A DNA stretch of 63,386 nucleotides, the filler included. It is 8 parts of 8 records of this genome, joined end to end, with 100 filler letters (N's around TTAATTAATTAA, not from the genome) between each part and the next. Parts side by side here need not be neighbours in the genome. Positions count along the whole stretch, not along the records: positions 57,840 to 63,386 come from SRR31156797_43099; 7 more parts are not named here. One strand, written 5' to 3'. The notes under the pieces were generated by a model. It did no database searches, was not told the DNA's origin, and was given only the letters and a program-made list of their open reading frames with translations. Shown piece by piece: positions 15,729 to 63,386 of this stretch. Position 1 is the first letter of the stretch; each line of letters starts with the position of its first letter. Both the position numbers and the translations under genes were made by a program.

Positions 15729-15761
15729 AGAAGGGATAGTTCTGTGTTAAACCATTTGTTC

Positions 15762-17243: not shown

Positions 17244-17254
17244 AATATCAAACC

Positions 17255-18046
17255 TCAACGTGTGAGTTCACGCAGCCTTTCATCTTCAAGTGATGAAGGC
17301 ATCACGGAACCCTCGTTGGACATAATAGCATGTGCAAGATCACGATATACTCCGGCAACGGTGGAATCAGGAGCTTTTTCAAGTACGGAGAAACCATCCC
17401 TTTCACAATCCTGGACTATCTGCTCCTTTGGTATAAAAGCCATGAGCTTGCTTCCGATTTCCTCGGAAAACTTTCTCACAATATCCTCTTCCCTTGTGAC
17501 ACTTCTAGAATTGCAAATGATGCCGGAAAGAGGTGTATTGATCTTGGCAAGTCCCTTACAGATATTGTTTGCAGCGTAAAGCGGCATGTACTCGCCGGAT
17601 GTAAGGATGTAAGCCTCGTTCACAAGTCCCTTGCGAATTGGTGCGACAAAACCGCCACACACGATGTCTCCCGGAACGTCATAGATTATCAGGTCCATAT
17701 CATCAATGGACTTGCACATTTGCTTAAGTTTCTGGATCGCAACGATAATTCCGCGTCCTGCACAACCGATTCCAGGCTCAGGACCACCTACTTCCACGCA
17801 TTTAACACCCTTGTATCCTTCATGAACGATGTCTTCTTCTTTGACATCGATCTTCTGCCTGAGAAGATCAAGGATGGTTGGAATCCTCTTACCACCAAGG
17901 AGTGTTATGGATGAATCGCTCTTCGGATCACATCCGATTATCATGACACTGTAGCCTTCATCGGCACAAGCTGCTGCAACATTGGAAGCGGTACTGGATT
18001 TTCCTATTCCGCCTTTTCCGTAAATGGCTATTCTCTTCTGTTCCAT
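17255..18046 (-). CDS. cfbC: Ni-sirohydrochlorin a,c-diamide reductive cyclase, NifH-like subunit
   Basis: [22 protein letters not shown] and [11 protein letters not shown] motifs. Confidence 0.92.
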
Positions 18047-48708: not shown

Positions 48709-48812
48709 GGATATAAACCAAACATGACAAATTCACGCGAATCCGCGATGACCCAATGAGAAAAAATGAAAGAAGACCCCGGAAAATGCCGAGACGCGTA
48801 TTTTAAAGCTGC

Positions 48813-48905
48813 CCCATCACGGCGCCTTATTCATTACGGCATATGGCAGCTGATGTTGATGGGTTGCTTGAATCGCTAGAAATCGAAAAAGCCGATGTTT
48901 ACGGG
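48813..48905 (+). pseudogene. Alpha/beta hydrolase gene remnant
   Basis: PITAPYSLRHMAADVDGLLESLEIEKADVYG stops resembling a hydrolase just before the expected GxSxG. Confidence 0.55.
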
Positions 48906-48945
48906 AAAACGAAACCGTTTATCCGAACCCACAAGGTGAAAGAAT

Positions 48946-49794
48946 ATGGAAACAACCATAGAGGAACTGGTGACCGAAGCGTTGCGTGGATCCGGAAAGG
49001 ACCTGGAAGAGGTGGTTCGTCGCATTCAGGGAAGGGTGCACGCCCTTGCCCTGCGTATGCTGTTCCATCCCGCGGACGCCGAGGATGCTGTTCAGGAGAT
49101 CCTAATCAAGGTAATCACCCATCTCAAGAGCTTTCGATTCGAAGGACCTTTCAGAGCTTGGGTGATGAAAATTGCAGCCAATCATCTCCGGACCGTTCGC
49201 AAGGGACGCGTGGAAAAACGGGAATTGACCATGGAAAAGGCCCAAAATACCGTCGATCATGCGGAGGCCATGGGGTGGTTCTCGAGTCTCCCCGAGGCGC
49301 CCCTGCCCGTTATGGAAGTGGAAATTCGCTCGGCCTGCACCCAGGCCCTGCTTCTGGCCCTGGATCGGTCCCACCGGTTGGCTTTTGTTCTGGGGGTGGT
49401 CATGGATGTTTCGGGTCGTGAAGGGGCCTACATACTGGACATCACCCCTGCCGCATTTCGAAAACGCCTCTCCAGGGCCCGCCGGCGGGTCATGGATTTC
49501 CTGAGGACCAATTGCGGTTTGTTCAATGAAGCCAATCCATGCCGCTGCAGGGGCGTTTCGGCCGGCCATGTGAAAAAAGGCTGGATTGACCCGCAACGGC
49601 CCCTTTTCACTGCCGGATCCCCCCATGGTCAGGATGGAAACGTGCCCCTGGGGGCCTATATGAAAGAATTGGATGAACTTGGACGGGTTTCGGCCCTGTA
49701 CAAGTCCTTTCCGGAAAACAAAAGTGAAGCCGATTTCACTGACCTGGTCAAAGACCTGGTGGAAAAGGGGGATTACCGCGTTTTATCCGAATAA
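48946..49794 (+). CDS. ECF sigma-70 factor with Cys-rich C-terminal extension
   Basis: DAEDAVQE and FRAWVMKIAAN (region 2), RKRLSRAR (region 4), then CGLFNEANPCRC. Confidence 0.9.
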   Translation: METTIEELVTEALRGSGKDLEEVVRRIQGRVHALALRMLFHPADAEDAVQEILIKVITHLKSFRFEGPFRAWVMKIAANHLRTVRKGRVEKRELTMEKAQNTVDHAEAMGWFSSLPEAPLPVMEVEIRSACTQALLLALDRSHRLAFVLGVVMDVSGREGAYILDITPAAFRKRLSRARRRVMDFLRTNCGLFNEANPCRCRGVSAGHVKKGWIDPQRPLFTAGSPHGQDGNVPLGAYMKELDELGRVSALYKSFPENKSEADFTDLVKDLVEKGDYRVLSE

Positions 49795-49870
49795 GGCCTC
49801 GGCCCTAAGGCGAAATCAATTTTTCGGGCTTGGTTCTAACTTCGCCCACGTCCCTCTAAGCAGCTTTTGC

Positions 49871-49913
49871 ATATTTATAAACTAAATTTATAAATATTAA
49901 TTTATTCTTGACA
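49871..49913 (+). promoter_or_regulatory. AT-rich palindrome (candidate operator) next to a TTGACA -35 box
   Basis: ATATTTATAAA-CTAAA-TTTATAAATAT at 49871-49897; TTGACA at 49908-49913. Confidence 0.45.
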
Positions 49914-50027
49914 GCGAATCCCGCCTCTGTTACAGGAGATTGCATAGAAGTAGAATCAGGCTGTAAAGTCGCGAGATCTGTGTATCGCTTTTGTCCCTTT
50001 ATTTTTTGCCATTGGAAAAGAGCGCCG

Positions 50028-50675
50028 ATGAAAAATAAAAGTGACTTAGCCAAGGAAATCGGCCGCAGAGTGAAAGAGGTCCGAAACCGGGCCGGCCTGA
50101 CCCAAAAAAAACTGGCCCAAGCCACAAGCCTTTCCCCGGGGCTCCTTTCCAGAATAGAAAACGGCCTTGCCATGCCATCCATACCCACCCTGCAGATCAT
50201 CTCTGATATTTTGAAAACGGAAATGGAATATTTCTTTAAAGATCAAGAGGAAAAGGGGTTCGTGGTCACCCGTCCGGGTGAGCGCCGGGTTGTGGTCTCA
50301 AAATCCGGACCGGACGGAAAGAGTGCCTATGAGCTGGAACTCCTTGCCGAGGGGATGAACAACCCCTTTATGGAGCCGGCTCTCGTCACACCGGTGGGCA
50401 AGGAGGAGGACGTCCTGCCGAGGACCCATGACGGTCAGGAGTTCATGTATGTGCTTGAGGGCAACATCAAGCTGACGGCGGGATCCAAAGAGTTCACGTT
50501 GAAGAAAGGGAATGCGGCCTATTGGAACGGCAATGTCCCCCACAAAACCGTCAGGATAGGACGAAACAGGGCAAGGGCACTACATGTGCACTTGATCCCC
50601 GGACGTTGGACGGGAACCTTCCGGTATGAGGAACTTCCGGGGCGAATGGGGAAAGGTGGGAGCGGGAAGAAATAG
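50028..50675 (+). CDS. XRE family HTH regulator with cupin domain
   Basis: LTQKKLA...LSRIENG HTH; HDGQEFMYVLEG cupin. Confidence 0.92.
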   Translation: MKNKSDLAKEIGRRVKEVRNRAGLTQKKLAQATSLSPGLLSRIENGLAMPSIPTLQIISDILKTEMEYFFKDQEEKGFVVTRPGERRVVVSKSGPDGKSAYELELLAEGMNNPFMEPALVTPVGKEEDVLPRTHDGQEFMYVLEGNIKLTAGSKEFTLKKGNAAYWNGNVPHKTVRIGRNRARALHVHLIPGRWTGTFRYEELPGRMGKGGSGKK

Positions 50676-50786
50676 GGTAAAGAACATGAATTACTTATGC
50701 GGGGATCTGCAATAGGGAAAGGAGGTGAACACCGAAAACCTCACCCACAAACATGGAACCAACCCAAAAGAGAAAGGATTGAGATC

Positions 50787-51872
50787 ATGATGATAAATAA
50801 AAACAGTTTTCTCAAGATGTTATTGGTTGCCGTCCTTTGTATATCCGTATCCGTACTCTTTTTGCCCGAGAGCGAGGCAGGCAAATACAAGAAGGAGTAC
50901 AAAATGACGCTTAACGTTGGGCCTCAATTCTACTGGGGGATGGGGGCTGTTAAGTTTGTGGAATTGGTGAAGCAGAAAACAAAGGGACAGATCAATATCA
51001 AACCCTATTTCGGCAGCGCGCTTCTCAAGGGGGCGCAATTGAAATCGCCGCAAATGGTCGCCAAAGGGGTGATTGACTGCGCCTATGAATCCACCATTAA
51101 TTCCGCTTCGGTCATACCTGAAATGAATATTTTCTCCCTCCCGTTTTTTATCAATAACTTTGAAAACCTCGATAAAATGGAATATGGCGAAACCGGAAAA
51201 GCCATATTCAAGGCCATGGATAAAAAGGGGCTGGTGGGGCTTGCATGGGCGGAGAACGGATTCAGGCAGGTTACAAACAGCAAGAGGGCCATTAAGAGAC
51301 CCGAGGACCTCAAGGGATTGAGACTCCGGGTTGTGGGGAGCCCCATCTTTATCGACACCTTCAGGAAATTGGGCGCCGACCCGGTCAATATGAACTGGGG
51401 AGACGCGGTAACCGCTTTCCAGCAGGGTGTTGTGGACGGCCAGGAGAACCCCGTGGGTGTTCTTGTCCCGGTGCAGATCTGGCAATACCACAAATATGCC
51501 ACCCTATGGAACTACCTTGTGGATCCTGTGATCGTTTACTGGAATAAAAAGGAATGGAATGCCTTCCCCAAGGATATTCAAAAGGCGATCCGCGAGGCCG
51601 CCGTGGAATCGGCCAGATTTGAAAAGGCCCTGTGTCGCGCGGGACTCGATGGGGATATATCCTTAAACATCCTGAAGAATGAATTCAACTATACCATGAA
51701 GGTCCCCGAACCCATCAAATTCATGGAGAGTAAAGGGATGACGGTGACCTCCCTTACGGATGATGAGCGAAACGCCTTTATGGATGCCACACGGCCTCTC
51801 TATGAAAAATGGGTCCCAAAGATAGGAAAGGGCCTGTATGAAAAGGCCAAGGCCGATATGGGAAAAAGGTAG
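50787..51872 (+). CDS. dctP: TRAP transporter substrate-binding protein
   Basis: ENGFRQ, DLKGLRLRV and VDGQENP motifs; signal peptide. Confidence 0.93.
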   Translation: MMINKNSFLKMLLVAVLCISVSVLFLPESEAGKYKKEYKMTLNVGPQFYWGMGAVKFVELVKQKTKGQINIKPYFGSALLKGAQLKSPQMVAKGVIDCAYESTINSASVIPEMNIFSLPFFINNFENLDKMEYGETGKAIFKAMDKKGLVGLAWAENGFRQVTNSKRAIKRPEDLKGLRLRVVGSPIFIDTFRKLGADPVNMNWGDAVTAFQQGVVDGQENPVGVLVPVQIWQYHKYATLWNYLVDPVIVYWNKKEWNAFPKDIQKAIREAAVESARFEKALCRAGLDGDISLNILKNEFNYTMKVPEPIKFMESKGMTVTSLTDDERNAFMDATRPLYEKWVPKIGKGLYEKAKADMGKR

Positions 51873-51888
51873 GTTTCCGGCTTGAATT

Positions 51889-51927
51889 TTGGTACGTCCG
51901 GGAAATAACCTTTTACGGGCGTACCAA
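51889..51927 (+). other. Intercistronic stem-loop after dctP
   Basis: TTGGTACGTCCG...CGGGCGTACCAA. Confidence 0.5.
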
Positions 51928-51968
51928 GGCTATTTTGGTTTTACGTTTTGAACCCATGAGGATAATCC

Positions 51969-52460
51969 ATGGCCCGGACAAAACAGCACATCAGAATCGA
52001 CCATTGGATAGCCGCAATTCTGCTTTTTACCATGGCATCCATCGCCTTTATTAATGTGCTCAGTCGCTACCTGTTTCATTTTTCATTTGCCGCGACCGAA
52101 GAGATTACCATCAATCTCTTTGTCTGGCTGACCGTTGTGGGTTCCGGAATCGCCTTTGAACGGGGCGCCCAGCTTGGAATGGTAACCCTTTATAATATTT
52201 TCCCCGGGAAATTCAAAAAGGTCGTCATCTTCCTTGCATCCGGACTGAGCGCCGTCCTCTTCCTCCTGGTTGATATTTATATGATACAGGCCATATATGA
52301 TGAATTAACCCTTTTCCAAGCAACATCGGCGGCTTTGGCCATCCCCGTATGGATCTATTACATCGGCGTTCCCATATTCTCTGTTTTTGTGTTCAGGGGC
52401 ATCTACAGGGATGCCTTCTCCAAATTAAGGGGACTTGAGAGCGAGGGGACAAACGAATAA
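51969..52460 (+). CDS. dctQ: TRAP transporter small permease
   Basis: Four TMs, NVLSRY...EEI motif; between dctP and dctM. Confidence 0.9.
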   Translation: MARTKQHIRIDHWIAAILLFTMASIAFINVLSRYLFHFSFAATEEITINLFVWLTVVGSGIAFERGAQLGMVTLYNIFPGKFKKVVIFLASGLSAVLFLLVDIYMIQAIYDELTLFQATSAALAIPVWIYYIGVPIFSVFVFRGIYRDAFSKLRGLESEGTNE

Positions 52461-53749
52461 TGGAGATCTTGCTTATTTCCATGGTGTTTCTACTCCTGAT
52501 GGCCCTGGGTGTCCCCATCGGAACGTGCCTCGGGATTGCCGCCGTGGTCACCATCATCCAGTTTGATCTGGGCATAGGGATGCTGGGGGTGAATTTCAGC
52601 ACGGGGATTGCGTCGTTTCCCCTCCTTGCGATCCCCTTTTTCGTTTTAGCCGGGGTTATTCTTGAAAAGGCGGGCTTGGCCGCCACCATCGCCCGTTTCT
52701 TTGAGCTGCTGGTGGGTAAGATGGTGGGCGGCCTGGCAATGGTGGCCGTATTTACATGCATGTTCTGGGGGGCGCTTTCAGGGTCGGGTCCCGCCACTAC
52801 CGCGGCGGTTGGGTTAATCCTTCTTGCCCCCATGGTGAAGCATGGATACGACAAGAGCTTTGCCGGCGCCACAATCGCCAATTCATCCGATCTCTCCATC
52901 ATCATACCACCGAGCATTGCGTTCATTATTTATGGAAACATCACCAGCGTCTCGGTGAGCGCCCTTTTTGTGGCGGGGATTATCCCCGGTCTGATCACGG
53001 GAGTGGGAACGGTTCTTGTTGCATACCTCATTTCAAGGAAGCGGGGGTATAAAGGCCTCAAAAAGAGAGGGACCCCGAAAGAGATCCTCACCGCCCTCAA
53101 AGAATCCATCTGGGCCATCCTCACGCCGATTATTATCCTGGGGGGTATTTACGCCGGAATATTTACACCCACCGAGGCAGCGGTTGTGGCCGTTTTTTAC
53201 TCCCTTTTTGTGGCGGTTTTTGTTTACCGCTCCATATCGTGGCGTGATCTTATCAGGATACTGGTGGATGCCAGCGTCACCAGTTCCGTGATTATGTTTC
53301 TTGTGGTATTTGCGGGGATCTTTACCTGGGCCGCATCGGTGATAGGGATTATCGATTTGACGGCCAACGCCATTATCAAGATATCACCCAATGCCGCGGT
53401 CATGATCATCCTGGTGAATTTGCTCCTGTTGGCCCTCGGCATGATATTGGATGCCATCTCCATCTCTTATCTGATCATGCCGATCCTCATGCCGGTTTTG
53501 GCCGCATTCGGCATAGACCCCCTGTGGTACGGCGTTATTTTTATTTCAGCACTCGCCATCGGCCAGGCAACCCCCCCGGTGGGGGTCAATCTTTTTACCG
53601 CGGCCAACCTCATAAAAGGAGACGTGGACGCCGTGGCCAAACAGGCGATCCCCTTCGTCATTATGGATGCCGTTGTTTTGATTATTCTCTCCCTGTTTCC
53701 CATACTCTCTTTGTATCTGCCGATCAAATCGGGACTGTATACACCCTAA
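52460..53749 (+). CDS. dctM: TRAP transporter large permease
   Basis: AIPFFVLAG, IIPPSI, GIFTPTEAA and TPPVGVNLF motifs. Confidence 0.95.
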   Translation: MEILLISMVFLLLMALGVPIGTCLGIAAVVTIIQFDLGIGMLGVNFSTGIASFPLLAIPFFVLAGVILEKAGLAATIARFFELLVGKMVGGLAMVAVFTCMFWGALSGSGPATTAAVGLILLAPMVKHGYDKSFAGATIANSSDLSIIIPPSIAFIIYGNITSVSVSALFVAGIIPGLITGVGTVLVAYLISRKRGYKGLKKRGTPKEILTALKESIWAILTPIIILGGIYAGIFTPTEAAVVAVFYSLFVAVFVYRSISWRDLIRILVDASVTSSVIMFLVVFAGIFTWAASVIGIIDLTANAIIKISPNAAVMIILVNLLLLALGMILDAISISYLIMPILMPVLAAFGIDPLWYGVIFISALAIGQATPPVGVNLFTAANLIKGDVDAVAKQAIPFVIMDAVVLIILSLFPILSLYLPIKSGLYTP

Positions 53750-53755
53750 AATAAG

Positions 53756-54565
53756 ATGGCGGCGTCATTGTTTATCATAAAAATGGTGGTTACGGTGATG
53801 GTGGTATTGCTGCTTTCCCTTGTGGCGGAGCGTGTGAGCCCCAGGGTCGCCGGTATCCTGGCCGGTTATCCTTTGGGGGCCGCCATTGCCTTATTCTTTA
53901 TCGGTCTTGAGATCAGTCCTGAATTTGCCTCAAACAGTGCCGTATATACCATGATGGGGTTGGTTGCCACCCAGTCTTTTGTCTATTTTTATTTCAAATC
54001 CACCCTTTTTTTTAAGCGCTTTGCTGTTTTTAATTCTACATTTTTTGCCACTTCCGGATATTTTATGGTGATCTGGCTTTTGCACTTTATCAGGCCCAAT
54101 CGATTTCTGGCCCTGTTGATACCGATCGCTTCCATATTTTTATTTGTCTATTTATTCAAGGAAATAAAGAATGCAACCATACAAAACAAGATAAAACTGA
54201 CGCCGGGAATTTTATTCTTTCGGGCCGTTCTGGCGGCCTTCATCATTCTGCTCATTACAGGGTCGGCAAAATTCGTCGGGGCCCGCTGGGCCGGGCTTTT
54301 CTCCGCCTTTCCCATCGCCCTGCTGCCCCTGATATTAATTGTACACCTGACCTATGACCAAGAGCACGTTCACACCATCATAAAAAATTTTCCCCTGGGC
54401 CTGGGCTCTTTAATCGTATATTCCTTATGCGTATCCATTGTTTATCCCATCAACGGCATTTATATGGGGACGTTCATATCCCTGGCGGCGGCGACCCTCT
54501 ACCTGCTTGTTTTTCGTTTGGCTGCCGAACGGGTGGATCGATACCGTAAACGGAGGCATCATTGA
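53756..54565 (+). CDS. Polytopic membrane protein of unknown function (two internally similar halves)
   Basis: GILAGYP and GLFSAFP repeated motif; about 8 TMs. Confidence 0.7.
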   Translation: MAASLFIIKMVVTVMVVLLLSLVAERVSPRVAGILAGYPLGAAIALFFIGLEISPEFASNSAVYTMMGLVATQSFVYFYFKSTLFFKRFAVFNSTFFATSGYFMVIWLLHFIRPNRFLALLIPIASIFLFVYLFKEIKNATIQNKIKLTPGILFFRAVLAAFIILLITGSAKFVGARWAGLFSAFPIALLPLILIVHLTYDQEHVHTIIKNFPLGLGSLIVYSLCVSIVYPINGIYMGTFISLAAATLYLLVFRLAAERVDRYRKRRHH

Positions 54566-55533
54566 TGACCCAACAGAATCAGACATATTTATCCTACTAC
54601 CAAAAAATGGTGACCATTCGCGAATTTGAGACGATGGCCGGCCGACTGTTTGCCGCATCGAAAATTCCGGGGTTTATCCATCTCTCCATCGGCCAGGAGG
54701 CCTCGGCCGTGGGGGTCTGCTCGTGTTTGCGGGCTGACGACTACCTGACCACCACCCATCGCGGGCATGGGCACATGATCGGCAAAGGGGCCGATTTAAA
54801 AAAAATGACGGCTGAATTGTTCGGTAAGAAGACGGGCTATTGTAAAGGTAAAGGCGGCTCCATGCACATCGCCGATTTTTCGTTGGGTATTCTGGGCGCC
54901 AACGGGGTGGTGGGTGGCGGATTGCCCATTATCACCGGGGCCGGGTTTTCCATTAAAATGAGAAAAACCGATCAGGTGGCGGTTTGCTTTTTCGGCGACG
55001 GGGCCGCCAATCGCGGCACGGTACATGAGGCCATGAATATGGCCTCCATCTGGAAGTTACCGGTGCTCTTTGTGGTGGAAAACAATCAATACGCTTCGAC
55101 GACGCCCCAGCGCTACGCCTGTTCCGTGAGAGATATCAGCAGCCGTGCCGCCGCTTACGGTATGCCCGGGGTGACGGTGGACGGCAATGATGTGCTTAAA
55201 GTCCGGGACGTCGCTTCAGCAGCGGTGGACCGGGCTCGCAGGGGGGAGGGGCCCAGTCTCATGGAAAACAAAACCTACCGGTTCCGTGGACATTATGAGG
55301 GGGATCCCCAGGAATATCGCAACGAAACGGAAACTGCGGACTGGGAAAATAATAACGATCCCATCAAGCGGTTTGCCGATTATCTGACCCGAAATCATAT
55401 TTTAACCCCCCAATTGAACCGACGGATCCGTGACCGGGTGGCGGCGGAACTGGAAGATGCCGTAGCATTTTCTGAAGAGAGCCCTTTCCCGGATCCGCCG
55501 GAAGCGTTGCAAGACCTGTTCGTGAATCACTAA
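54565..55533 (+). CDS. TPP-dependent dehydrogenase E1 alpha (AcoA/PdhA-like)
   Basis: GFIHLSIGQEA, GKGGSMH, GDG...ENN and TYRFRGH motifs. Confidence 0.92.
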   Translation: MTQQNQTYLSYYQKMVTIREFETMAGRLFAASKIPGFIHLSIGQEASAVGVCSCLRADDYLTTTHRGHGHMIGKGADLKKMTAELFGKKTGYCKGKGGSMHIADFSLGILGANGVVGGGLPIITGAGFSIKMRKTDQVAVCFFGDGAANRGTVHEAMNMASIWKLPVLFVVENNQYASTTPQRYACSVRDISSRAAAYGMPGVTVDGNDVLKVRDVASAAVDRARRGEGPSLMENKTYRFRGHYEGDPQEYRNETETADWENNNDPIKRFADYLTRNHILTPQLNRRIRDRVAAELEDAVAFSEESPFPDPPEALQDLFVNH

Positions 55534-55552
55534 CGCCAAGAGGAATTCTATC

Positions 55553-56533
55553 ATGACTGATCGCATAATGACCTGTTCGGCCGCGCTGGCCGAAGCCCTG
55601 CACGAAGAGATGACCCGGGACGAGACCCTATTTATCCTGGGGGAGGACCTGACGGCCCATGCCGGCGTATTCGGTCAGTTTAAGGGAATCCCTGAAAATT
55701 TCCCGGGTCGCATCATTGACACGCCCATCAGCGAAACGGGGATTGTCGGTGTCGGACTGGGCGCGGCCCTGACCGGCATGCGGCCCTTTGTTGATCTGCA
55801 TTTTGCTGATTTTACCACCTGCTGCATGGATGAACTGACCAACCAAACAGCCAAAATCCGTTACATGTTCGGCGGTCAGGTGAGGGTTCCCATGGTGGTC
55901 TGGTGCCCGGACGGCGCCGGCCTGAGAGCGGCGGCCCAGCACTCTCAATCCCTGGAAGCCTGGTTCGTTCACACCCCCGGGCTCAAGGTGGTTGTGCCCG
56001 GTGAGCCGGCGGACGTTAAAGGCCTCATAAAATCGGCCATCCGCGATGATGATCCGGTCATGGTTTTCCAGCACAAGAAGTTTTTTGCAACAGAGGGGCC
56101 GGTACCGGATAGGGATTTCACCATCCCTCTGGGGAAGGCCGCTATCAAACGGTCGGGCAGGGACGTCACCTTATTGAGTTACGGTTCCGGTTTTTTCCTC
56201 TGCAAAGATACCCTTGGCGAACTCGGAAAGCTGAATATCGACGCCGAACTGGTCGATTTGAGGACCCTCAAGCCTCTGGATATGGCGCTGGTGGCCGAAT
56301 CCATCCAAAAAACTCATCGGGCCGTGATTGTTCACGAAGCCTGTTTGACCGGTGGATTCGGAGCGGAACTGGCTGCCGGGATCCAGGAGGAGTTGTTTGA
56401 TTACCTGGATGCCCCCATCAAACGCGTGGCGGCCAAAGATTGTCCCATACCGTTTTCGCCACCCCTTGAAGATTATGTGTTGCCCAAGGTGTCCGAAGTG
56501 GTCGAGGCGGTGCGGGCAGTCACGTACCGGTAG
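55553..56533 (+). CDS. TPP-dependent dehydrogenase E1 beta (AcoB/PdhB-like)
   Basis: GEDL, DTPISE, AAQHSQSLEAWF and DLRTLKPLD motifs. Confidence 0.92.
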   Translation: MTDRIMTCSAALAEALHEEMTRDETLFILGEDLTAHAGVFGQFKGIPENFPGRIIDTPISETGIVGVGLGAALTGMRPFVDLHFADFTTCCMDELTNQTAKIRYMFGGQVRVPMVVWCPDGAGLRAAAQHSQSLEAWFVHTPGLKVVVPGEPADVKGLIKSAIRDDDPVMVFQHKKFFATEGPVPDRDFTIPLGKAAIKRSGRDVTLLSYGSGFFLCKDTLGELGKLNIDAELVDLRTLKPLDMALVAESIQKTHRAVIVHEACLTGGFGAELAAGIQEELFDYLDAPIKRVAAKDCPIPFSPPLEDYVLPKVSEVVEAVRAVTYR

Positions 56534-56579
56534 AATGAGCTCCATCAAATGCCGACGGGATGGATCCATTCCGTTCATG

Positions 56580-57407
56580 TCATAGGAAAAGCTCAGGCTC
56601 CTTTCTTTCCCGGCAGATCTCATACAAATGGTGAATCGCCTTGGTAAAATTCGGTTCCGTCATTTGCCGGGCCCCCGAAGGGCAGTTTCGGATGCAGGCA
56701 AAACAGATGGAACACCCCCATCGGTCCGTCAAGACCTCGCCGTTCAGGGAAACGGCCCCCGACGGACAGACCTCGACGCATCGGCCGCATTGGATGCACA
56801 ATTCCCCATCCGTCTCAGGCGTCAAGGGAACGGATTTTCGCGCCTCCTTGAGCATGATCAGGTTTTGGGGCGTCACATAGGGCACATTTCCGGGAACCTT
56901 GAGGGCTTCCGCCGAATGGGGCGACTCAAGGAGTTCGAATTTTTCCCGAACCCTTGCGCCGAACCTCAGGGCCTTTGCCAGATCCTCCGAATCGGGCCGG
57001 TCTTTGGCGATGGGGCGTTGGGCTGTGGAATAGGAGTGTTCGGCGATAAAGGCCCCTGCCGCCACCGGAACGAATCCGTCCGCAACCGCAATATCGTTCA
57101 ATTCCCTGAGGGCGTCATCATATTCCCTGTTTCCATAGACCGCCACCAGCACAACCGGCGTCTTTTGAGCGGAAAGTTTTGCAAAATAGGGGGTAATTTC
57201 CTCCGGAACCCGTCCATAATAGACCGGTGTGGCGAGGATAACCGGATCATCCTGAAACGCCATTTTTAATTTTTCCCTCTCTGAGCGTTTTGTGCAGTCC
57301 ATCATCTCAATTCTTTCGGTACCCATGCCTTTTGCAATGTGCTCGACAATGGTTTTCGTTGTTCCGGTGGGTGAAAAAAAGATACAGGAAATGGTTTGGA
57401 ATTTCAT
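56580..57407 (-). CDS. EFR1-type flavodoxin-like/4Fe-4S ferredoxin protein
   Basis: FSPTGTT, YGNREYDDAL and two CxxCxxCxxxCP motifs. Confidence 0.88.
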   Translation of the reverse strand: MKFQTISCIFFSPTGTTKTIVEHIAKGMGTERIEMMDCTKRSEREKLKMAFQDDPVILATPVYYGRVPEEITPYFAKLSAQKTPVVLVAVYGNREYDDALRELNDIAVADGFVPVAAGAFIAEHSYSTAQRPIAKDRPDSEDLAKALRFGARVREKFELLESPHSAEALKVPGNVPYVTPQNLIMLKEARKSVPLTPETDGELCIQCGRCVEVCPSGAVSLNGEVLTDRWGCSICFACIRNCPSGARQMTEPNFTKAIHHLYEICRERKEPELFL

Positions 57408-57624
57408 ATGGGGTCTCCTTTATTGCTGGCATTTCTACGAATATCATGCATGCGTCATCCTCTAAAATGCATATGGCATTGAAGTTTGTTTTTTGATCTA
57501 CCCGCCGACGATACACCATGGCGTGTGATTTCAGGTAAGAATAATTGAAATGAAAAAAGAAAACATCCCCCTATCGGGGGATGGGGATCATCTTTTTTGG
57601 GTCATCGCGGATTAGCGTGAGTAC

Positions 57625-57736
57625 TTCCCCGAAGGGGAAACGTCATATGGCCGGTGGTTTCAACCACCGGGAAAGGAGCCAAGATCTTCAAGTCCTGAAA
57701 GGACGGCGGATTCTTCGACGTCGTCCCTTCAGGACT
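57625..57736. repeat. REP-like hairpin cluster
   Basis: TTCCCCGAAGGGGAA; CCGGTGGTTTCAACCACCGG; AGTCCTGAAAGGACG...CGTCCCTTCAGGACT. Confidence 0.6.
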
Positions 57737-57739
57737 CAT

Positions 57740-57839: not shown

Positions 57840-57974
57840 CCGGCCAATCCCCAGTTCGGTTTCAAGTTCAGACAGAACCAGACGGGTTCCGGGAAGCTTA
57901 ACGCCGCTGAGAATCATGTCCCTTATCTTCTCGTAGGCCCTCAGGGATTTCATGAATGATTTGTTTTCAGCCAA
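57840..57974 (-). CDS. GntR family regulator (N-terminus only, truncated)
   Basis: AYEKIRDMILSG.KLPGTRLV...LGIGR winged-HTH start. Confidence 0.8.
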
Positions 57975-58101
57975 TTGTCGCGTCCCTTTGATTCAAGCGT
58001 CTATTCTTCATTTACCCTGAATCCATCTAAATTTCAGAATATATTACATAAAAAAGTGACCGTTAGTAGTATGAATGATACCTTTTTGTCAAATGGTCGC
58101 C

Positions 58102-58854
58102 TCAAGGCATCGCGGCGTTTTCATTTTCTGCACATGGATCGGAAAAACCCTTTCGGTTGGTTGCCACCTGGACAATCTCAGTCGCGAGTATTTCGGCCGC
58201 ATCGATACAATCGATGGGCAGATCTCCGCCAAGGGCGCTGAGTTCGGTGCAGGCGACAATCGCCAGGGACGCCCCCCGCTGCTTCAGGTTTTCACAGACA
58301 TCTGCATAACCCGCATGCACGCGACTGCCGGTGTCTCCCTGTTTGACGGCTTTGATAACGTCCAGAAGGCGCTTCTGATGATCCGGATCCGGCCAGACAT
58401 CACTGATGCCCATCGGTTTAAACCGCTTGGCATATAGCCCCGTCATGGCCACCGCCGGTGAAGCCAGTAGGCCCACGTTGCCCTGATCCGGAAAATAGGT
58501 TTTCACATGTCGGGACACCAGGTCAATTAAATTGACGACCGGAATGTCGACGGCATGTGCTACTGCGTCATAGTAGTAATGGGCCGTGTTGCAGGCAATC
58601 ACCAGAAAATCCGCCCCCCAGGATTCCAGCCGCCGGCCCATGTCTGCCATGCATGGCCCCGGGTCTTCTCCATCCCCTTCGATAATCGCCTTTATTCTGG
58701 ATGGCACCTTGGGATTGTTGTCCACGATACAACGGATGTGATCGACGTCATCCAGGGCCGGCGTCAACCGGATGATGCGCTGCATCAGATCAACCGTAGC
58801 CTCCGGGCCCATGCCGCCCAAAATACCGACGATCTTTTCTTTCGGTTCGGTCAT
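58102..58854 (-). CDS. Aspartate/glutamate racemase family protein (candidate cysteate racemase)
   Basis: GILGGMGPEAT; two catalytic Cys motifs, ACNTAH and ACTELS. Confidence 0.9.
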   Translation of the reverse strand: MTEPKEKIVGILGGMGPEATVDLMQRIIRLTPALDDVDHIRCIVDNNPKVPSRIKAIIEGDGEDPGPCMADMGRRLESWGADFLVIACNTAHYYYDAVAHAVDIPVVNLIDLVSRHVKTYFPDQGNVGLLASPAVAMTGLYAKRFKPMGISDVWPDPDHQKRLLDVIKAVKQGDTGSRVHAGYADVCENLKQRGASLAIVACTELSALGGDLPIDCIDAAEILATEIVQVATNRKGFSDPCAENENAAMP

Positions 58855-58916
58855 TCTGTCTTCCATTTGTGTAGAAAATTTGATCAAGAGCCCCCGGCAT
58901 CAGGGGCCCTTTTCAA

Positions 58917-59921
58917 TCAGCCCTGTCTGAAGGTATCCATGTAAGCATACAATGCCGGGGACCCGCCGGTGTGAAGAAAAAGCACATTCGCCCCCTTTGG
59001 GAAATGTCCATTGCGAACGAGGTCGACCAGCCCTGCGGCAGCCTTTCCGGAATAAACCGGGTCCAGAAGAATGGCTTCGGTTTTAGCAAACAACTTGACG
59101 GCCTCAACCATGGCGTCAGTCGGCAGAGAGTATCCAGGTCCCACATACTGGTCAAAACAGACAATCTCCTCACGGGAGACACCCGCCTTTACACCGAGCC
59201 GCTCGGCAAGTTCTACCGACAGGTTGTAAACGATCTCTTCCTGTACCTCCTTCGGCCGAGAGACATTGACCCCGCTGATGGGGATTCCGCCGTTGACACC
59301 AGCCATGCCGACGACCATGCCGGCGTGGGTTCCGGCAGAACCCGACGGAAGGACAATATGATCGACATCAAGTCGCATATCGTTGAGCTGAACCATGGTC
59401 TCTTCCGCACAAACCGCGTACCCCGTGGCACCGATGGGATTGGAAGCGCCACCAGGAACAATATACGGTTTTTTGCCGGCCACCGCCAGTTCATCGGCCT
59501 TTTTACCCATCTCGGCCGCCATGTCGGAACCGCCGGGGACAACGCCAATGCTCTTGACATCAAGCAGTTCAAAAAGAAAATTGTTCCCACTTGCACTCTC
59601 CTTGTAGGAGCCTGCCACGCGCTCTTCGAGAACCAGGTGACAATCCAGGCCTTCCTTGGCGGACCAGGCGGCGGTCAGGCGGCAATGGTTGGATTGGACG
59701 GCACCGCAGGTGATGATTGAATCCTTTCCTTGATCAAGTGCATCGGCAATGCAGAACTCCAGCTTTCTGGTTTTATTGCCGCCGCCGGATCCCGGAAGAA
59801 GGTCATCCCGTTTGACGTACAGATTCACCCCACCGCCCAATGCTTTGCTCAAAGAGGGCATACTCTCGATGGGGGTTGGTCCTTGAAGGTATTTTCTTCT
59901 GGGAAACTTGGTATAATTCAT
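58917..59921 (-). CDS. D-cysteine desulfhydrase/ACC deaminase family PLP lyase (candidate D-cysteate sulfo-lyase)
   Basis: KRDD...GGNKTRKLEF, QSNH, SGSAGTHAG, DPVYSGK and HTGG motifs. Confidence 0.9.
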   Translation of the reverse strand: MNYTKFPRRKYLQGPTPIESMPSLSKALGGGVNLYVKRDDLLPGSGGGNKTRKLEFCIADALDQGKDSIITCGAVQSNHCRLTAAWSAKEGLDCHLVLEERVAGSYKESASGNNFLFELLDVKSIGVVPGGSDMAAEMGKKADELAVAGKKPYIVPGGASNPIGATGYAVCAEETMVQLNDMRLDVDHIVLPSGSAGTHAGMVVGMAGVNGGIPISGVNVSRPKEVQEEIVYNLSVELAERLGVKAGVSREEIVCFDQYVGPGYSLPTDAMVEAVKLFAKTEAILLDPVYSGKAAAGLVDLVRNGHFPKGANVLFLHTGGSPALYAYMDTFRQG

Positions 59922-59991
59922 TGATCTTCCTCTCCTTGCGTATTTTCTACAGCGTTAAAAACGTTTAAAATTCACATTCCCGGCGAATCCG

Positions 59992-60372
59992 TCATAGTTG
60001 AAAAATAGCTTCCACCTCAACATCCGCACCCAATGGCAGTGCCGCCACCTGGAAGGCGCTGCGCGCGGGATAGGGCTCCTTGAAGTATTGGGCGTAAACC
60101 TGGTTGACGGCCTGAAAATCGGCAATATCGGCCAGATAAACGGTGGTCTTGACAGCATTGTCCAAAGTGGTCCCGGCCGCGGTGGCAATGGCTTCGAGAT
60201 TTTTAAACACGATATGGGCCTTCTCTTCGATACTGCCATCGGGGATTTTTCCGGTGGCAGGGTCAATGGGAAGCTGTCCGGAAGTGAACAGCAGACTGCC
60301 GGAAACAACCCCTTGGGAATAGGGGCCGATGGCAGCCGGTGCGTGATCGGTTTGAATCGATTGTTTAGACAT
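59992..60372 (-). CDS. RidA family enamine/imine deaminase
   Basis: APAAIGPYSQG, SGQLP, YPARS and LPLGADVEVE motifs. Confidence 0.93.
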   Translation of the reverse strand: MSKQSIQTDHAPAAIGPYSQGVVSGSLLFTSGQLPIDPATGKIPDGSIEEKAHIVFKNLEAIATAAGTTLDNAVKTTVYLADIADFQAVNQVYAQYFKEPYPARSAFQVAALPLGADVEVEAIFQL

Positions 60373-60382
60373 GATAGGGCTC

Positions 60383-61597
60383 CTACGTAAATAGTTTTGA
60401 TGAAACCGCTTTAATGATCTCAAGAATATCCCGGCAGTCATCCTCGCTGAATGTCAGGGGGATTCGCATGTCACACATGACAGCCAGGATGCGTTTGGTA
60501 TTGGCCAGATAAGGTAAATGATCGAAATATCGCCAGCTTTCATAGGCGCTGGTGAAGCCCACCGGCTCCTTGTTTCCGAACCATTTGAGTTCGACCCCCC
60601 AGTTCAGGCACTCTTCAAGAAACGCTCTGATGGTCGGTTCCTCCTGACCGTTCAGGGAAAACTGGATGGAACTGCCCACGTACTGTTCACGCGGATCCCG
60701 CTGGGGACATGTAATTCCATCGATGCTCGCCAACCCCTGCTCCAGGATCCGATAGCGGCTGTTCCAGCGCTCGCACTGAGCATCCAGAACCCTGAGCTGA
60801 GGTCTCAAAATGGCGGCCCGCAGATTGTCCATGCGGCTCGAATAATTGGGAACCATGGTCTTGATGCCCTCGAACACCGCCATTTCGGGCCGCGAGGTGT
60901 GTCGCTCATAGAGCATGTAAGATCCCGAATAGATGATGGCACGGGCGATCAGTTCGGGATCGTCGGTCACCAGCAGGCCCCCTTCCCCTGAATTCATATG
61001 CTTGTAGGTTTGGGTGCTGAAGCAGGCGACTTCGCCAAAGGCACCGGATTTTGTCCCGTCCCATGTGGCGCCCATGGTGTGGGCGCAATCTTCAATCAGG
61101 AAAAGGTCCTGGGCCGCGCAAATCTGCAGGAGCCGATCCATATTGGTGATGTGCCCGCGCATGTGGGAAAGCATCAACCAGCGGGCATCCGATGCCTTGG
61201 CTTTTTCTTCGAGGTCATCGAGATCGATGGTATAATCATCTACGATGTCCACCAACTCGATCGTTGCGCCTGCGTTTTCGATTGCGCCGGGAACCGGTGC
61301 CAGCGTGTAGGCATTGCACAGAACCTTGTCGCCCGGCTGGACCCCGGCACTCTTGAGCGCCAGATACATGGCACTCCCGCAGGAAGCGCAAGCCAGGCAA
61401 TATTTCTTGCCCATGTAGGCGGCAAACTCTTCTTCCAAAAGGGCGGCCTCGCCCTTCTCATCCGGGTCGACATTGTAACGGTGAAGTTTTCCGGACCTTA
61501 AAATGGCGAGGGCTTTTTCGATTCCCTCTTCGCCAACGGGTTCCTGCAAGGTAAAATCCTTGGTGAACCGTTTCGTCTCCGTTTCGGACATGGTCAT
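60383..61597 (-). CDS. DegT/DnrJ/EryC1/StrS family PLP enzyme
   Basis: EDCAH and FSTQTYKHMNSGEGG motifs. Confidence 0.9.
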   Translation of the reverse strand: MTMSETETKRFTKDFTLQEPVGEEGIEKALAILRSGKLHRYNVDPDEKGEAALLEEEFAAYMGKKYCLACASCGSAMYLALKSAGVQPGDKVLCNAYTLAPVPGAIENAGATIELVDIVDDYTIDLDDLEEKAKASDARWLMLSHMRGHITNMDRLLQICAAQDLFLIEDCAHTMGATWDGTKSGAFGEVACFSTQTYKHMNSGEGGLLVTDDPELIARAIIYSGSYMLYERHTSRPEMAVFEGIKTMVPNYSSRMDNLRAAILRPQLRVLDAQCERWNSRYRILEQGLASIDGITCPQRDPREQYVGSSIQFSLNGQEEPTIRAFLEECLNWGVELKWFGNKEPVGFTSAYESWRYFDHLPYLANTKRILAVMCDMRIPLTFSEDDCRDILEIIKAVSSKLFT

Positions 61598-61631
61598 ACT
61601 CCTGCGGCTTCACGGATTTTAAACCCGATCC

Positions 61632-62942
61632 TTAGTATTGGGTCTGTGAATAAACATCGAAATCCCACTCTTTGTCAGGGAAGTATTTTCTCAGACGCCA
61701 ATCGCATGCACGGGCATGGCCTTCCATGCCCTCAACCCTGGACAGACGCGATGCCGCCCCACTGATTACCAGGTTGGCCTCCCGGCTGATCTCCTGGTAG
61801 GTATAGATTTTCAGAAATTTAAGGACATTGAGACCGCCGGTGTAGTAGCCGGCCTTTTTGGTTGGCAGGATGTGATTGGTCCCCGAGCACTTGTCGCCAT
61901 GGGATACCGTGCTGCCTTCACCAAGAAACAGGGAACCATAGGATTTGAGATGTTTGACCCACCAGTCCAGATCCTTAGCCATCACCTGAACATGCTCGGC
62001 CGCGTATTCGTCATTGACCCGACAGAGCTCTTCCCTGTTCTTGCACAATACGATTTCACCATAGTCCCGCCAGGAGGCTTCCGGTACTTCGGGGTTGGGC
62101 ATATCGGCGATGATCTTGGGCATCGAATCGAGCACTTTTTCACCCAATTCCCTGGAGTCGGTGAACAACCACACCGGAGAATCGGTTCCGTGTTCGGCCT
62201 GGGAGACCAGATCGACGGCGACCGTCATATAATCGGCCGATTCGTCGGCAATGATGGCCGACTCCGTGGGGCCGGCAAATACGTCGATGGTGCACTTTCC
62301 GGCAGAGGAAAGAATACTTTTTGCTTCGGCAACGTAGGCGTTGCCGGGGCCGGCAAGGATATTGGCCGGTTTGCCGGTAAACAGACCGAAAGCCATGGTG
62401 GCAATGGCCTGAACGCCCCCCATTTCTAGGATGATGTCGGCCCCGGCCACCTCCAGGGCATAAACGACCGCCGGGGCGATGCTCTCCCCGCGGGGCGGCG
62501 AGCAGGCAATGACAGTTTCGACACCCGCCGCTTTGGCCGTGGCTACGCTCATTAGGGCCGAACAGGCATGGGCGAACCGCCCACCGGGAATATAACAGCC
62601 GGCCACCGCCATGGGAACAATGCGCTGGCCCAAACGAACACCGGGACGCGTCTCGGTTTCAAATTCCTGGAGACTGTCCCGCTGTGCCCTGGCAAACCCG
62701 GACACCTGTTCATGGGCGAAACGGATATCCTGTTTGATGGCTTCGGGCACAGAATCGATAAGGCGCTGTTTCTTTCCCTGACTGAGGATGAAGTCCCCTT
62801 CCCAACCGTCGAATTTTTTGGCCAGCTCGGCAACAGCCTTTTCACCGTTTTTTTCGATCTCTGCAAGAATGTCCTGCACGATGCCGCGGATTTTATCCGT
62901 ATCAGATTCCGCCGTTTTGGCGGCCTTCTTGATGTACTCCAT
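61632..62942 (-). CDS. Histidinol dehydrogenase family, HpsN (sulfopropanediol dehydrogenase)-like clade
   Basis: EYIKKA start, GCYIPGGRF, GPGN, SQAEHG, WRDYGEI, DLDWW, GDK.SGTNH and EGMEGHARA motifs; no his-operon context. Confidence 0.85.
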   Translation of the reverse strand: MEYIKKAAKTAESDTDKIRGIVQDILAEIEKNGEKAVAELAKKFDGWEGDFILSQGKKQRLIDSVPEAIKQDIRFAHEQVSGFARAQRDSLQEFETETRPGVRLGQRIVPMAVAGCYIPGGRFAHACSALMSVATAKAAGVETVIACSPPRGESIAPAVVYALEVAGADIILEMGGVQAIATMAFGLFTGKPANILAGPGNAYVAEAKSILSSAGKCTIDVFAGPTESAIIADESADYMTVAVDLVSQAEHGTDSPVWLFTDSRELGEKVLDSMPKIIADMPNPEVPEASWRDYGEIVLCKNREELCRVNDEYAAEHVQVMAKDLDWWVKHLKSYGSLFLGEGSTVSHGDKCSGTNHILPTKKAGYYTGGLNVLKFLKIYTYQEISREANLVISGAASRLSRVEGMEGHARACDWRLRKYFPDKEWDFDVYSQTQY

Positions 62943-63068
62943 TACCGTCTCCAAATTTCAATAAATATTTTATAATACTTTTTCCTGCAAAGGATGATAG
63001 GCCATCGCTATCAACGAATAAAAATCAATCTTGCCGGGCGCTACTCACGCCCGGCATATAGAGAAGAC

Positions 63069-63386
63069 CTATTGAAAAAGCGTTCCCAGAAAATCAGGCA
63101 GCCACAATGTCAACGCAGGGAAATAGGCGATCAGGAAAACGACCAACACACTGACGAATACAAACGGCAACGCATTGACGGATATATCCTCCAAGGTGGT
63201 GCGGGCCACACCGGAAGCAATGAACATGTTCTCTCCCAGCGGAGGGGTCGCAAAGCCGATTTCGCAGCAGCACACTAGAACGACCCCGAAATGGATCGGA
63301 TCCACACCCAGAGAAACCATCACTGGTAGAAGCACAGGGGTCACCAGCATGATGGTGGCCAGGGTCTCCATGAACATCCCCATGAA
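63069..63386 (-). CDS. dctM: TRAP transporter large permease (C-terminal part)
   Basis: GVDPIHFGV and TPPLGENMF motifs. Confidence 0.9.
   Translation of the reverse strand, partial: FMGMFMETLATIMLVTPVLLPVMVSLGVDPIHFGVVLVCCCEIGFATPPLGENMFIASGVARTTLEDISVNALPFVFVSVLVVFLIAYFPALTLWLPDFLGTLFQ

Follow-up and report, generated by a model that had tools for sequence, protein, structure and literature searches.

D-Cysteinolate (2-amino-3-hydroxypropane-1-sulfonate) is an abundant osmolyte of algae and invertebrates, and its anaerobic breakdown gives sulfite reducers sulfite without the ATP cost of sulfate activation. A route by which D-cysteinolate is degraded was described by Liu et al. (J Biol Chem 2025, December 2025, PMC12814064), who started from cuyA-cuyB neighbourhoods in which a homologue of HpsN also occurs, together with an enzyme of PF01041 that was given the name CuyC. 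In the present work, we compare with this pathway a group of seven genes located at positions 57840-63386 of a stretch of DNA of 63,386 nucleotides (the window), and propose that it is very probably a copy, of Desulfobacterales type, of the cluster published for D-cysteinolate degradation. The pathway is already in print, as the initial annotation of the window had cautioned might be the case; the gene set is explained by it, and the cluster itself is not new.

According to the published work, HpsN from Bilophila sp. 4_1_30 oxidized L-cysteinolate best, was less active on R-2,3-dihydroxypropane-1-sulfonate (R-DHPS) and did not oxidize D-cysteinolate, while the Bilophila CuyC showed alpha-proton exchange on D-cysteinolate and coupling to HpsN. 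The Bilophila CuyA formed sulfite and pyruvate from D-cysteate, and also from L-cysteate once the CuyB of B. wadsworthia was added. D. litoralis, which contains the cluster, grew and produced H2S on pyruvate plus D-cysteinolate, whereas D. desulfuricans, which contains only cuyA, did neither; D. litoralis grows with L-cysteate as well (PMC12814064).

The window consists of eight assembly pieces joined by seven N44-ttaattaattaa-N44 spacers, which lie within 5454-57839. The piece bearing the cluster begins at 57840, the first base past the last spacer, is about 5.5 kb long and is truncated at both ends; because it is a separate assembly piece behind a spacer, the cluster has no physical linkage to other parts of the window. 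Open reading frame (ORF) calls and Pfam and NCBIfam searches showed all seven genes of the initial annotation to be present, co-oriented on the minus strand in the order dctM-hpsN-cuyC-ridA-cuyA-cuyB-gntR. The features of the piece are the following (TRAP, tripartite ATP-independent periplasmic; PLP, pyridoxal 5'-phosphate):

63069-63386, minus strand: dctM, TRAP large permease (PF06808, 88.2 bits, profile positions 322-413 of 413; TIGR00786, 97.3 bits)
63032-63056, minus strand: terminator-like hairpin between dctM and hpsN (consensus scan)
61632-62942, minus strand: hpsN, HisD-family dehydrogenase, 436 aa (PF00815, 418.8 bits)
60383-61597, minus strand: cuyC, DegT/DnrJ/EryC1/StrS-family PLP enzyme, 404 aa (PF01041, 195.7 bits)
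59992-60372, minus strand: ridA, Rid-family enamine/imine deaminase, 126 aa (PF01042, 132.9 bits; TIGR00004, 169.9 bits)
58917-59921, minus strand: cuyA, predicted PLP-dependent D-cysteate sulfo-lyase, 334 aa (PF00291, 177 bits; NF052482)
58102-58854, minus strand: cuyB, predicted PLP-independent cysteate racemase, 250 aa (PF01177, 130 bits; NF052483)
57840-57974, minus strand: gntR, GntR/FCD-type regulator, N-terminal 45 codons (PF00392, 26.5 bits, E 5e-6)

The five enzyme genes are separated by gaps of 10 to about 70 nt, the ATG of ridA at 60372 lying 10 nt past the stop of cuyC, while longer intergenic regions are found before gntR (127 nt) and from dctM to hpsN (about 126 nt). Of dctM only the C-terminal 105 codons are present, as the gene runs past the end of the window, and the PF00392 score of gntR is just below the cut-off of 27 because this gene is truncated by the end of the piece. 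The start codon of hpsN was placed at the ATG at 62942, which is preceded by GGAG (an alternative TTG is at 62954). That of cuyB, the ATG at 58854, agrees with the start in L001, one of the related loci discussed below, the ORF being open up to a TTG at 58887.

We infer that the window orthologues act as the Bilophila sp. 4_1_30 and B. wadsworthia enzymes do, and infer likewise the roles of the TRAP transporter, RidA and GntR. D-Cysteinolate would be imported by the TRAP transporter and converted to L-cysteinolate by CuyC, a PLP enzyme of DegT fold; HpsN, a Zn- and NAD+-dependent member of the HisD family, would then oxidize the C3 alcohol of L-cysteinolate in two steps to L-cysteate. CuyB, a two-cysteine racemase, would convert L- into D-cysteate, from which CuyA, a PLP-dependent beta-eliminating lyase, would release sulfite and 2-aminoacrylate; the latter would be hydrolysed to pyruvate and ammonia by RidA, while sulfite would be the electron acceptor used by dissimilatory sulfite reductase. 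Local regulation is probably exerted by the GntR/FCD protein. This route of racemization, oxidation, epimerization and cleavage had been proposed in the initial annotation, and each of its enzymatic steps corresponds to a step of the pathway characterized by Liu et al. (PMC12814064). Import by a TRAP system was, instead, an addition to the published route: the main text of that paper makes no mention of TRAP, RidA, GntR or a transporter. The supplement lists 911 CuyC sequences, and TRAP genes or members from Desulfobacterales may already be included in the figures or supplements.

Identity of the enzymes

The dehydrogenase had been predicted to be of the HpsN rather than of the HisD type, and this was borne out by comparison with solved structures, by motifs and by phylogeny. 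Its score was 512 bits against the HpsN of C. pinatubonensis (8v35) and 187-217 bits against HisD structures; likewise, it is 53% identical to C. pinatubonensis HpsN versus 29-31% to the HisD paralogues of related genomes. With the hisD model TIGR00069 it scores 401 bits, which is above the cut-off. HpsN proteins possess a G-R-Y-A/S-H motif, whose last histidine (His126) binds the sulfonate group, where HisD has G-S-A-P-L (Burchill et al. 2024, PMC11382572). The motif of the window protein is G-R-F-A-H, in which His126 is kept and Tyr124 is replaced by Phe, a replacement present in all 20 rows of our alignment that come from Thermodesulfobacteriota-labelled loci. The sulfonate contact Lys353 and the catalytic and metal-binding residues Glu318, His319, Asp352 and His359 are also retained, while Ser226 is replaced by Thr, as it is in 39 of the 41 HpsN-type rows (including two of the three that are linked to hpsO). 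As His126 and Lys353 are both kept, the substrate of the window HpsN is expected to be a sulfonate. Five HisD paralogues from related genomes lack His126, show GKGGA-type sequences at the motif and have Tyr at position 353. Indeed, each of five related genomes bearing the cluster contains two classes of PF00815 protein, a separate HisD scoring 546-553 bits and the cluster copy scoring 416-423 bits.

The phylogenetic check suggested in the initial annotation gave the same answer. In a maximum-likelihood tree of 46 rows (midpoint-rooted, with most rows gathered via CuyC similarity and eight duplicate or fragmentary loci, L087-L094, left out), the five HisD paralogues were split from all the HpsN-type rows at 100/100. 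The window protein belongs to a clade of 34 rows (100/99), whose other 33 members are all encoded adjacent to cuyC, and the hpsO-linked, DHPS-type HpsN proteins of C. pinatubonensis (L096), Paracoccus (L097) and Leisingera (L098) are found outside this clade. We therefore assign the dehydrogenase to the HpsN type, and propose from its sequence that it is an L-cysteinolate dehydrogenase forming L-cysteate.

Additional HpsN-type paralogues (L086 on G003:C18, and L092-L094 on G003:C21) occur in one of the related genomes. One of them, an intact protein, shares 58% identity with the window HpsN, has GRFAH and Ser226, and branches immediately outside the cuyC-adjacent clade; another is spread across three reading frames.

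As regards the DegT-family gene, no CuyC model was matched in NCBIfam, nor was any sugar-aminotransferase equivalog near its cut-off (best score 117.7 versus 423.5 bits), and the best solved structures reach only 110 bits. A lysine in an S-x-x-x-x-K stretch of the window protein aligns with a lysine of 7b0d, and we take it to be the lysine that carries PLP. Liu et al. assigned CuyC proteins by a cluster in a sequence similarity network (E <= 1e-110, about 45% identity), which includes Bilophila G1V6E7 and R. pomeroyi Q5LPQ3, and by location within five ORFs of HpsN (PF00815), CuyB (PF01177) or CuyA (PF00291) (PMC12814064). In the window, hpsN adjoins cuyC on one side, and ridA, cuyA and cuyB follow on the other. 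The window protein is 58-59% identical to its homologues from three genomes of Ruegeria and 59-62% identical to those from two of Desulfovibrio. Among Desulfovibrionaceae, 30 of 401 genomes gave a match, with identities of 59-72% in 29 genomes and of 40% in the remaining one; such a gap is consistent with an orthologue group of its own. On these grounds, we propose that the window gene is cuyC and encodes a cysteinolate racemase.

The lyase and the racemase had been predicted to be CuyA and CuyB, and both exceed the cut-offs of the corresponding NCBIfam equivalogs. CuyA scores 513.7 bits with NF052482 (D-cysteate sulfo-lyase; cut-off 450), while it remains below the cut-offs of the equivalogs for D-cysteine desulfhydrase (295/429, 274/469 and 270/610, score/cut-off) and ACC (1-aminocyclopropane-1-carboxylate) deaminase (241/392 and 214/550); with the subfamily model ACC_deam_rel its score is 293.4 versus a cut-off of 289.4. 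The equivalents of Asn50, Lys51, Ser78, Asn79, Tyr287 (in LDPVYSGK) and Thr315 (in HTGG) of Salmonella DcyD are all kept. Lys51 binds PLP and Tyr287 deprotonates the alpha-carbon (StDcyD numbering), and the listed residues are common to CuyA and DcyD (Liu et al. 2024, PMC11193023), so that they do not discriminate between the two. CuyB scores 274.9 bits with NF052483 (cysteate racemase; cut-off 190) versus 38 bits with the aspartate/glutamate racemase equivalog (cut-off 417). The mechanism of CuyB uses two cysteines (PMC11193023), and both cysteines of the window protein align with Cys82 and Cys194 of the aspartate racemase 1jfl.

RidA is above the TIGR00004 cut-off (169.9 versus 106.25 bits), and ridA occupies the same position in 10 of 80 loci containing a cuyC relative, all of Desulfobacterales type. 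In two loci, L004 (at about 11211) and L007 (at about 11313), only RidA-like pieces of 32 and 22 aa, respectively, are left between cuyC and cuyA, which suggests that ridA has decayed in some of the Desulfobacterales copies.

It had also been claimed that automated labels would hide the function of the cluster. This does not apply to cuyA and cuyB, for which NCBIfam release 20 has named equivalogs, but does apply to hpsN, whose homologues bear the name hisD in 27 out of 30 listed plasmid rows, and to cuyC, for which no model was matched. In this context, the annotations 'hisD' and 'DegT aminotransferase' should read hpsN and cuyC.

Distribution and host of the cluster

A search with the window CuyC against one genome per prokaryotic species returned 569 confirmed relatives, of which the best 80 loci were kept for all counts. 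The closest relatives (83-84% identical) come from Desulfosarcina and other metagenome-assembled genomes (MAGs) of Desulfobacterales, and lower matches (55-62%) were found in Desulfovibrionaceae, Oceanospirillaceae, Vibrionaceae and many roseobacters, a spread equal to that given for CuyC by Liu et al. (PMC12814064); Bilophila sp. 4_1_30 and D. litoralis are not among the best 80 loci. Within 6 kb of cuyC, these loci contain hpsN (34), cuyA (23), cuyB (18), the end of dctM (14), ridA (10) and the N-terminus of gntR (10).

The search for synteny that had been suggested also gave a positive result, since the same gene order was found in Desulfosarcina and other Desulfobacterales genomes, the proteins of the closest four being 76-95% identical to those of the window. 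The exact order hpsN-cuyC-ridA-cuyA-cuyB recurs in 6 of the 80 loci, and given this recurrence the arrangement is not due to chance. Three loci (L001, L002 and L008) show the complete order dctM-hpsN-cuyC-ridA-cuyA-cuyB-gntR with 72-95% protein identity, and L004 shows the same order at 80-93% identity, with ridA reduced to the 32-aa piece. The C-terminus of DctM is 93-97% identical to copies encoded just upstream of hpsN in L001, L002, L004, L008 and L017, and the nucleotide sequence of the piece aligns collinearly with those of two related genomes (77-78% identity). The genes flanking the cluster differ among L001, L006 and L008.

The host of the window cluster is thus probably Desulfosarcina-like, judging from these similarities. 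A dsrA gene scoring above the cut-off was present in all five related cluster-bearing genomes examined and in none of 14 control genomes, and therefore bacteria hosting the cluster in this form are dissimilatory sulfite reducers.

Several variants of the locus were observed in other genomes. In a Desulfamplus MAG (L008, 7240-8412), dctM and hpsN are separated by an inserted gene of the URO-D family (uroporphyrinogen decarboxylase/methyltransferase-like fold). L001 has, immediately downstream of gntR (14395-17643), a thiamine pyrophosphate enzyme that is split between two reading frames, with N-terminal and middle domains, and a class-III aminotransferase; we presume that they resemble sulfoacetaldehyde acetyltransferase and taurine aminotransferase, in which case they would make this region a sulfonate island. 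The conjugative 328-kb plasmid pMPC6-328K of Pseudomonas sp. MPC6 (L095, NZ_CP034782.1, 246734-266041) carries a variant composed of cuyA, a sulfate-exporter-family gene, hpsN (labelled hisD, and 68.7% identical to the window hpsN), cuyC, TRAP dctPQM and cuyB, near which are located a TauE/SafE sulfite exporter, a sulfite oxidase and a cytochrome c; from this plasmid cluster, the pathway is thus mobile, in an aerobic, sulfite-oxidizing form. Finally, on a plasmid of Mesorhizobium terrae (L099, NZ_CP044217.1, 265457-278731) the order is cuyA-cuyC-cuyB-tauABC-hpsN, with a taurine-type ATP-binding cassette transporter replacing TRAP.

Uptake and regulation

Of the TRAP genes, only the C-terminus of DctM is encoded in the window, the binding protein DctP and the small permease DctQ being outside it. 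In L001, dctP-dctQ-dctM are located upstream of hpsN, and the best solved match of the L001 DctP is BwHpsK, the S-DHPS receptor of B. wadsworthia (PDB 24gh), at 252 bits. In BwHpsK the sulfonate is anchored by Arg152, Arg173 and Asn95 and capped by Trp196, His42 contacts the 3-hydroxyl of DHPS, and Trp238 contacts its 2-hydroxyl and acts as stereo-selector (Barber et al. 2026, PMC13335735). Alignment showed that Arg152, Arg173, Asn95, Trp196, Glu74 and Asn213 are conserved in the L001 protein, whereas His42 is replaced by Gln and Trp238 by Ser. The same pattern extends to 13 binding proteins whose genes are found at most 5 kb from cuyC, and which come from Desulfobacterales, Desulfovibrionaceae, Vibrionaceae, Aeromonadaceae, the Pseudomonas plasmid and an alphaproteobacterium: all 13 have Ser at position 238, and 11 have Gln at position 42. 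The Ser/Gln pattern is absent from three DctP proteins of these loci that are more distantly related.

Through these replacements, the pocket may have become adapted to the 2-ammonium group that cysteinolate carries. RpHpsK shows a clear preference for DHPS, and cysteinolate is among the compounds that gave only minor stabilization (PMC11382572, PMC13335735); no cysteinolate-binding protein was found in the literature searched on cysteinolate and on transporters for cysteinolic acid. The cuyC-linked DctP subfamily, a distinct relative of BwHpsK whose gene lies outside the window, is therefore put forward as a reasonable candidate for a cysteinolate receptor, and this point may not yet be in print. 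We lean, if only slightly, towards the view that the TRAP system of the cluster is the missing cysteinolate importer and that the cuyC-adjacent HpsN proteins may be a dedicated subfamily of L-cysteinolate dehydrogenases.

The hairpin at 63032-63056 is composed of 10 pairs, 8 of them G-C, and its G+C-rich stem is followed by a T-rich tail. The consensus scan found 11 terminator-like sites in the region, compared with 5.9 +/- 2.6 in shuffled sequences; on alignment, this hairpin is not conserved in the dctM-hpsN intergenic regions of the relatives. A promoter scan of the region was uninformative (5 sites versus 4.0 +/- 1.8 in shuffles). We also looked for an operator of the regulator by aligning the two intergenic regions with those of relatives; they are poorly conserved, and no operator is claimed. 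The exceptions are an A/T-rich stretch with GGAG before hpsN and a TTGACA box upstream of gntR (57975-58101, minus strand). The latter is common to L002, L003 and L004 and reads TTGCCA in L008, which suggests that gntR has its own promoter. The N-terminus of GntR is 75-92% identical to the regulator encoded at the same position in L001-L004, L006 and L008. The L008 regulator is full length, with GntR and FCD domains, and the L001 regulator has an FCD domain; in that assembly, the L001 gntR is frameshifted.

Other pieces of the window contain genes unrelated to the cluster. One of them carries, at 50697-56533 on the plus strand, a second TRAP system (DctP, 50697-51872; DctQ, 51969-52460; DctM, 52460-53749), followed on its 3' side by a weak DUF3147-like membrane protein and the alpha and beta subunits of a 2-oxoacid dehydrogenase E1, and preceded by a regulator with helix-turn-helix and cupin domains. 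This piece, at 48709-57739, was considered as genomic context of the cluster and rejected, in view of its different TRAP and E1 alpha/beta genes, its partial match to related genomes and the intervening spacer. This neighbouring piece, unlinked to the cluster, also encodes a flavodoxin-like domain fused to a 2x[4Fe-4S] ferredoxin domain (56580-57407, minus strand).

Alternative explanations and comparison with known systems

Some of the observations weigh against the assignment of the piece to the D-cysteinolate pathway. The Bilophila HpsN also oxidizes R-DHPS, more slowly, and the substrate range may be wider (PMC12814064). The HpsN rows of the tree were sampled through CuyC, which favours cuyC-adjacent rows, and two cysteinolate-type clusters from Hyphomicrobiales (L075 and L099) group with the alphaproteobacterial hpsO-linked HpsN proteins, so that the split in the tree tracks taxonomy as well as context. 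In addition, hpsN, cuyA and cuyB are all found within 6 kb of cuyC in only 13 of the 80 loci, and the full set is found in 9 of the 55 loci having at least 6 kb on both sides. The orthology of CuyC is argued from its family, its context and the 59-72% identity to proteins of 29 out of 401 Desulfovibrionaceae genomes, and the host of the 5.5-kb piece would be a sulfite reducer by analogy with its relatives. Finally, with a hairpin between dctM and hpsN, the transporter and enzyme genes may not share one transcript.

One could envisage that the cluster serves mainly for DHPS, with HpsN oxidizing R-DHPS to R-sulfolactate, which would lead via sulfopyruvate and cysteate to sulfite, and with CuyC acting as an aminotransferase and not as a racemase. 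HpsN was in fact first characterized as an R-DHPS dehydrogenase, and the Bilophila enzyme keeps some of this activity; CuyC has an aminotransferase fold, the TRAP binding protein of the relatives has the S-DHPS binder BwHpsK as its nearest match, and the aminotransferase step of the DHPS-CuyA route of R. pomeroyi still has no named enzyme in PMC11382572. However, no gene of the HpsO/HpsP, SuyAB or SlcD type is present on the piece or in the flanking ORFs scanned of L001, L006 and L008, and the Bilophila CuyC gave deuterium exchange on D-cysteinolate and coupling to HpsN without an amino acceptor (PMC12814064). Moreover, the window HpsN is separated in the tree from the three hpsO-linked proteins, and the linked binding proteins do not possess Trp238, which in BwHpsK holds the 2-hydroxyl of DHPS. 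A primary role in DHPS degradation appears, on balance, very unlikely.

Very unlikely, in our opinion, is also that the cluster is a unit for L-cysteate dissimilation, composed of CuyB, CuyA and RidA, with HpsN and CuyC acting on some other amino alcohol. CuyB, CuyA, RidA and a transporter do make up a complete published route (PMC11193023), and D. litoralis can indeed grow with L-cysteate (PMC12814064). Nevertheless, hpsN and cuyC sit between the transporter and the lyase genes, separated by 10-70-nt gaps, and are adjacent to each other in 34 of the 80 loci. Their dehydrogenase retains the sulfonate-binding His126 and Lys353, and the use of cysteate is already part of the D-cysteinolate pathway rather than an alternative to it. 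As for a non-sulfonate substrate such as D-cysteine, D-serine or serinol, with the lyase functioning as D-cysteine desulfhydrase and the dehydrogenase being histidinol-like, this would be permitted by the generic labels (TIGR00069 and ACC_deam_rel are both above cut-off) and by the partial activity of CuyA enzymes on D-cysteine (PMC11193023), but is hardly credible considering that the D-cysteine desulfhydrase equivalogs fail where that of CuyA passes, that the HisD-specific features are absent and that the related genomes hold a separate true HisD.

D-Cysteinolate degradation thus appears the best explanation of the cluster. This copy adds little beyond the 2025 paper, but shows the pathway in Desulfosarcina-type marine sediment bacteria, whose copies have a fixed accessory set made up of TRAP uptake, RidA and a GntR/FCD regulator, and it points to a candidate for the cysteinolate uptake protein.

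The closest known system is the hpsN-cuyC-cuyA-cuyB cluster of Bilophila sp., with which the window shares the same four co-located families, a host among the sulfate- and sulfite-reducing Thermodesulfobacteriota, and the predicted chemistry from D-cysteinolate to pyruvate, ammonia and sulfite. The window differs from it in its host, which would be Desulfosarcina-like and not a member of Desulfovibrionaceae, in the presence of ridA between cuyC and cuyA, and in the flanking TRAP and GntR/FCD genes. The L-cysteate cluster cuyA-cuyB-ridA of B. wadsworthia 3_1_6 is similar in having CuyB, CuyA and an adjacent RidA, but is described without hpsN and cuyC and with a transporter of the dicarboxylate:cation symporter family (SDF) in place of TRAP (PMC11193023). 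The HpsN-HpsO-HpsP pathway for DHPS in C. pinatubonensis and roseobacters (PMC11382572, PMC13335735) likewise relies on a HisD-family sulfonate dehydrogenase with the His126-type motif, and in Leisingera the TRAP uptake genes (HpsKLM) adjoin hpsN; unlike that pathway, the window has neither hpsO nor hpsP, and its HpsN, with Phe in place of Tyr124, belongs to a separate clade of cuyC-adjacent proteins.

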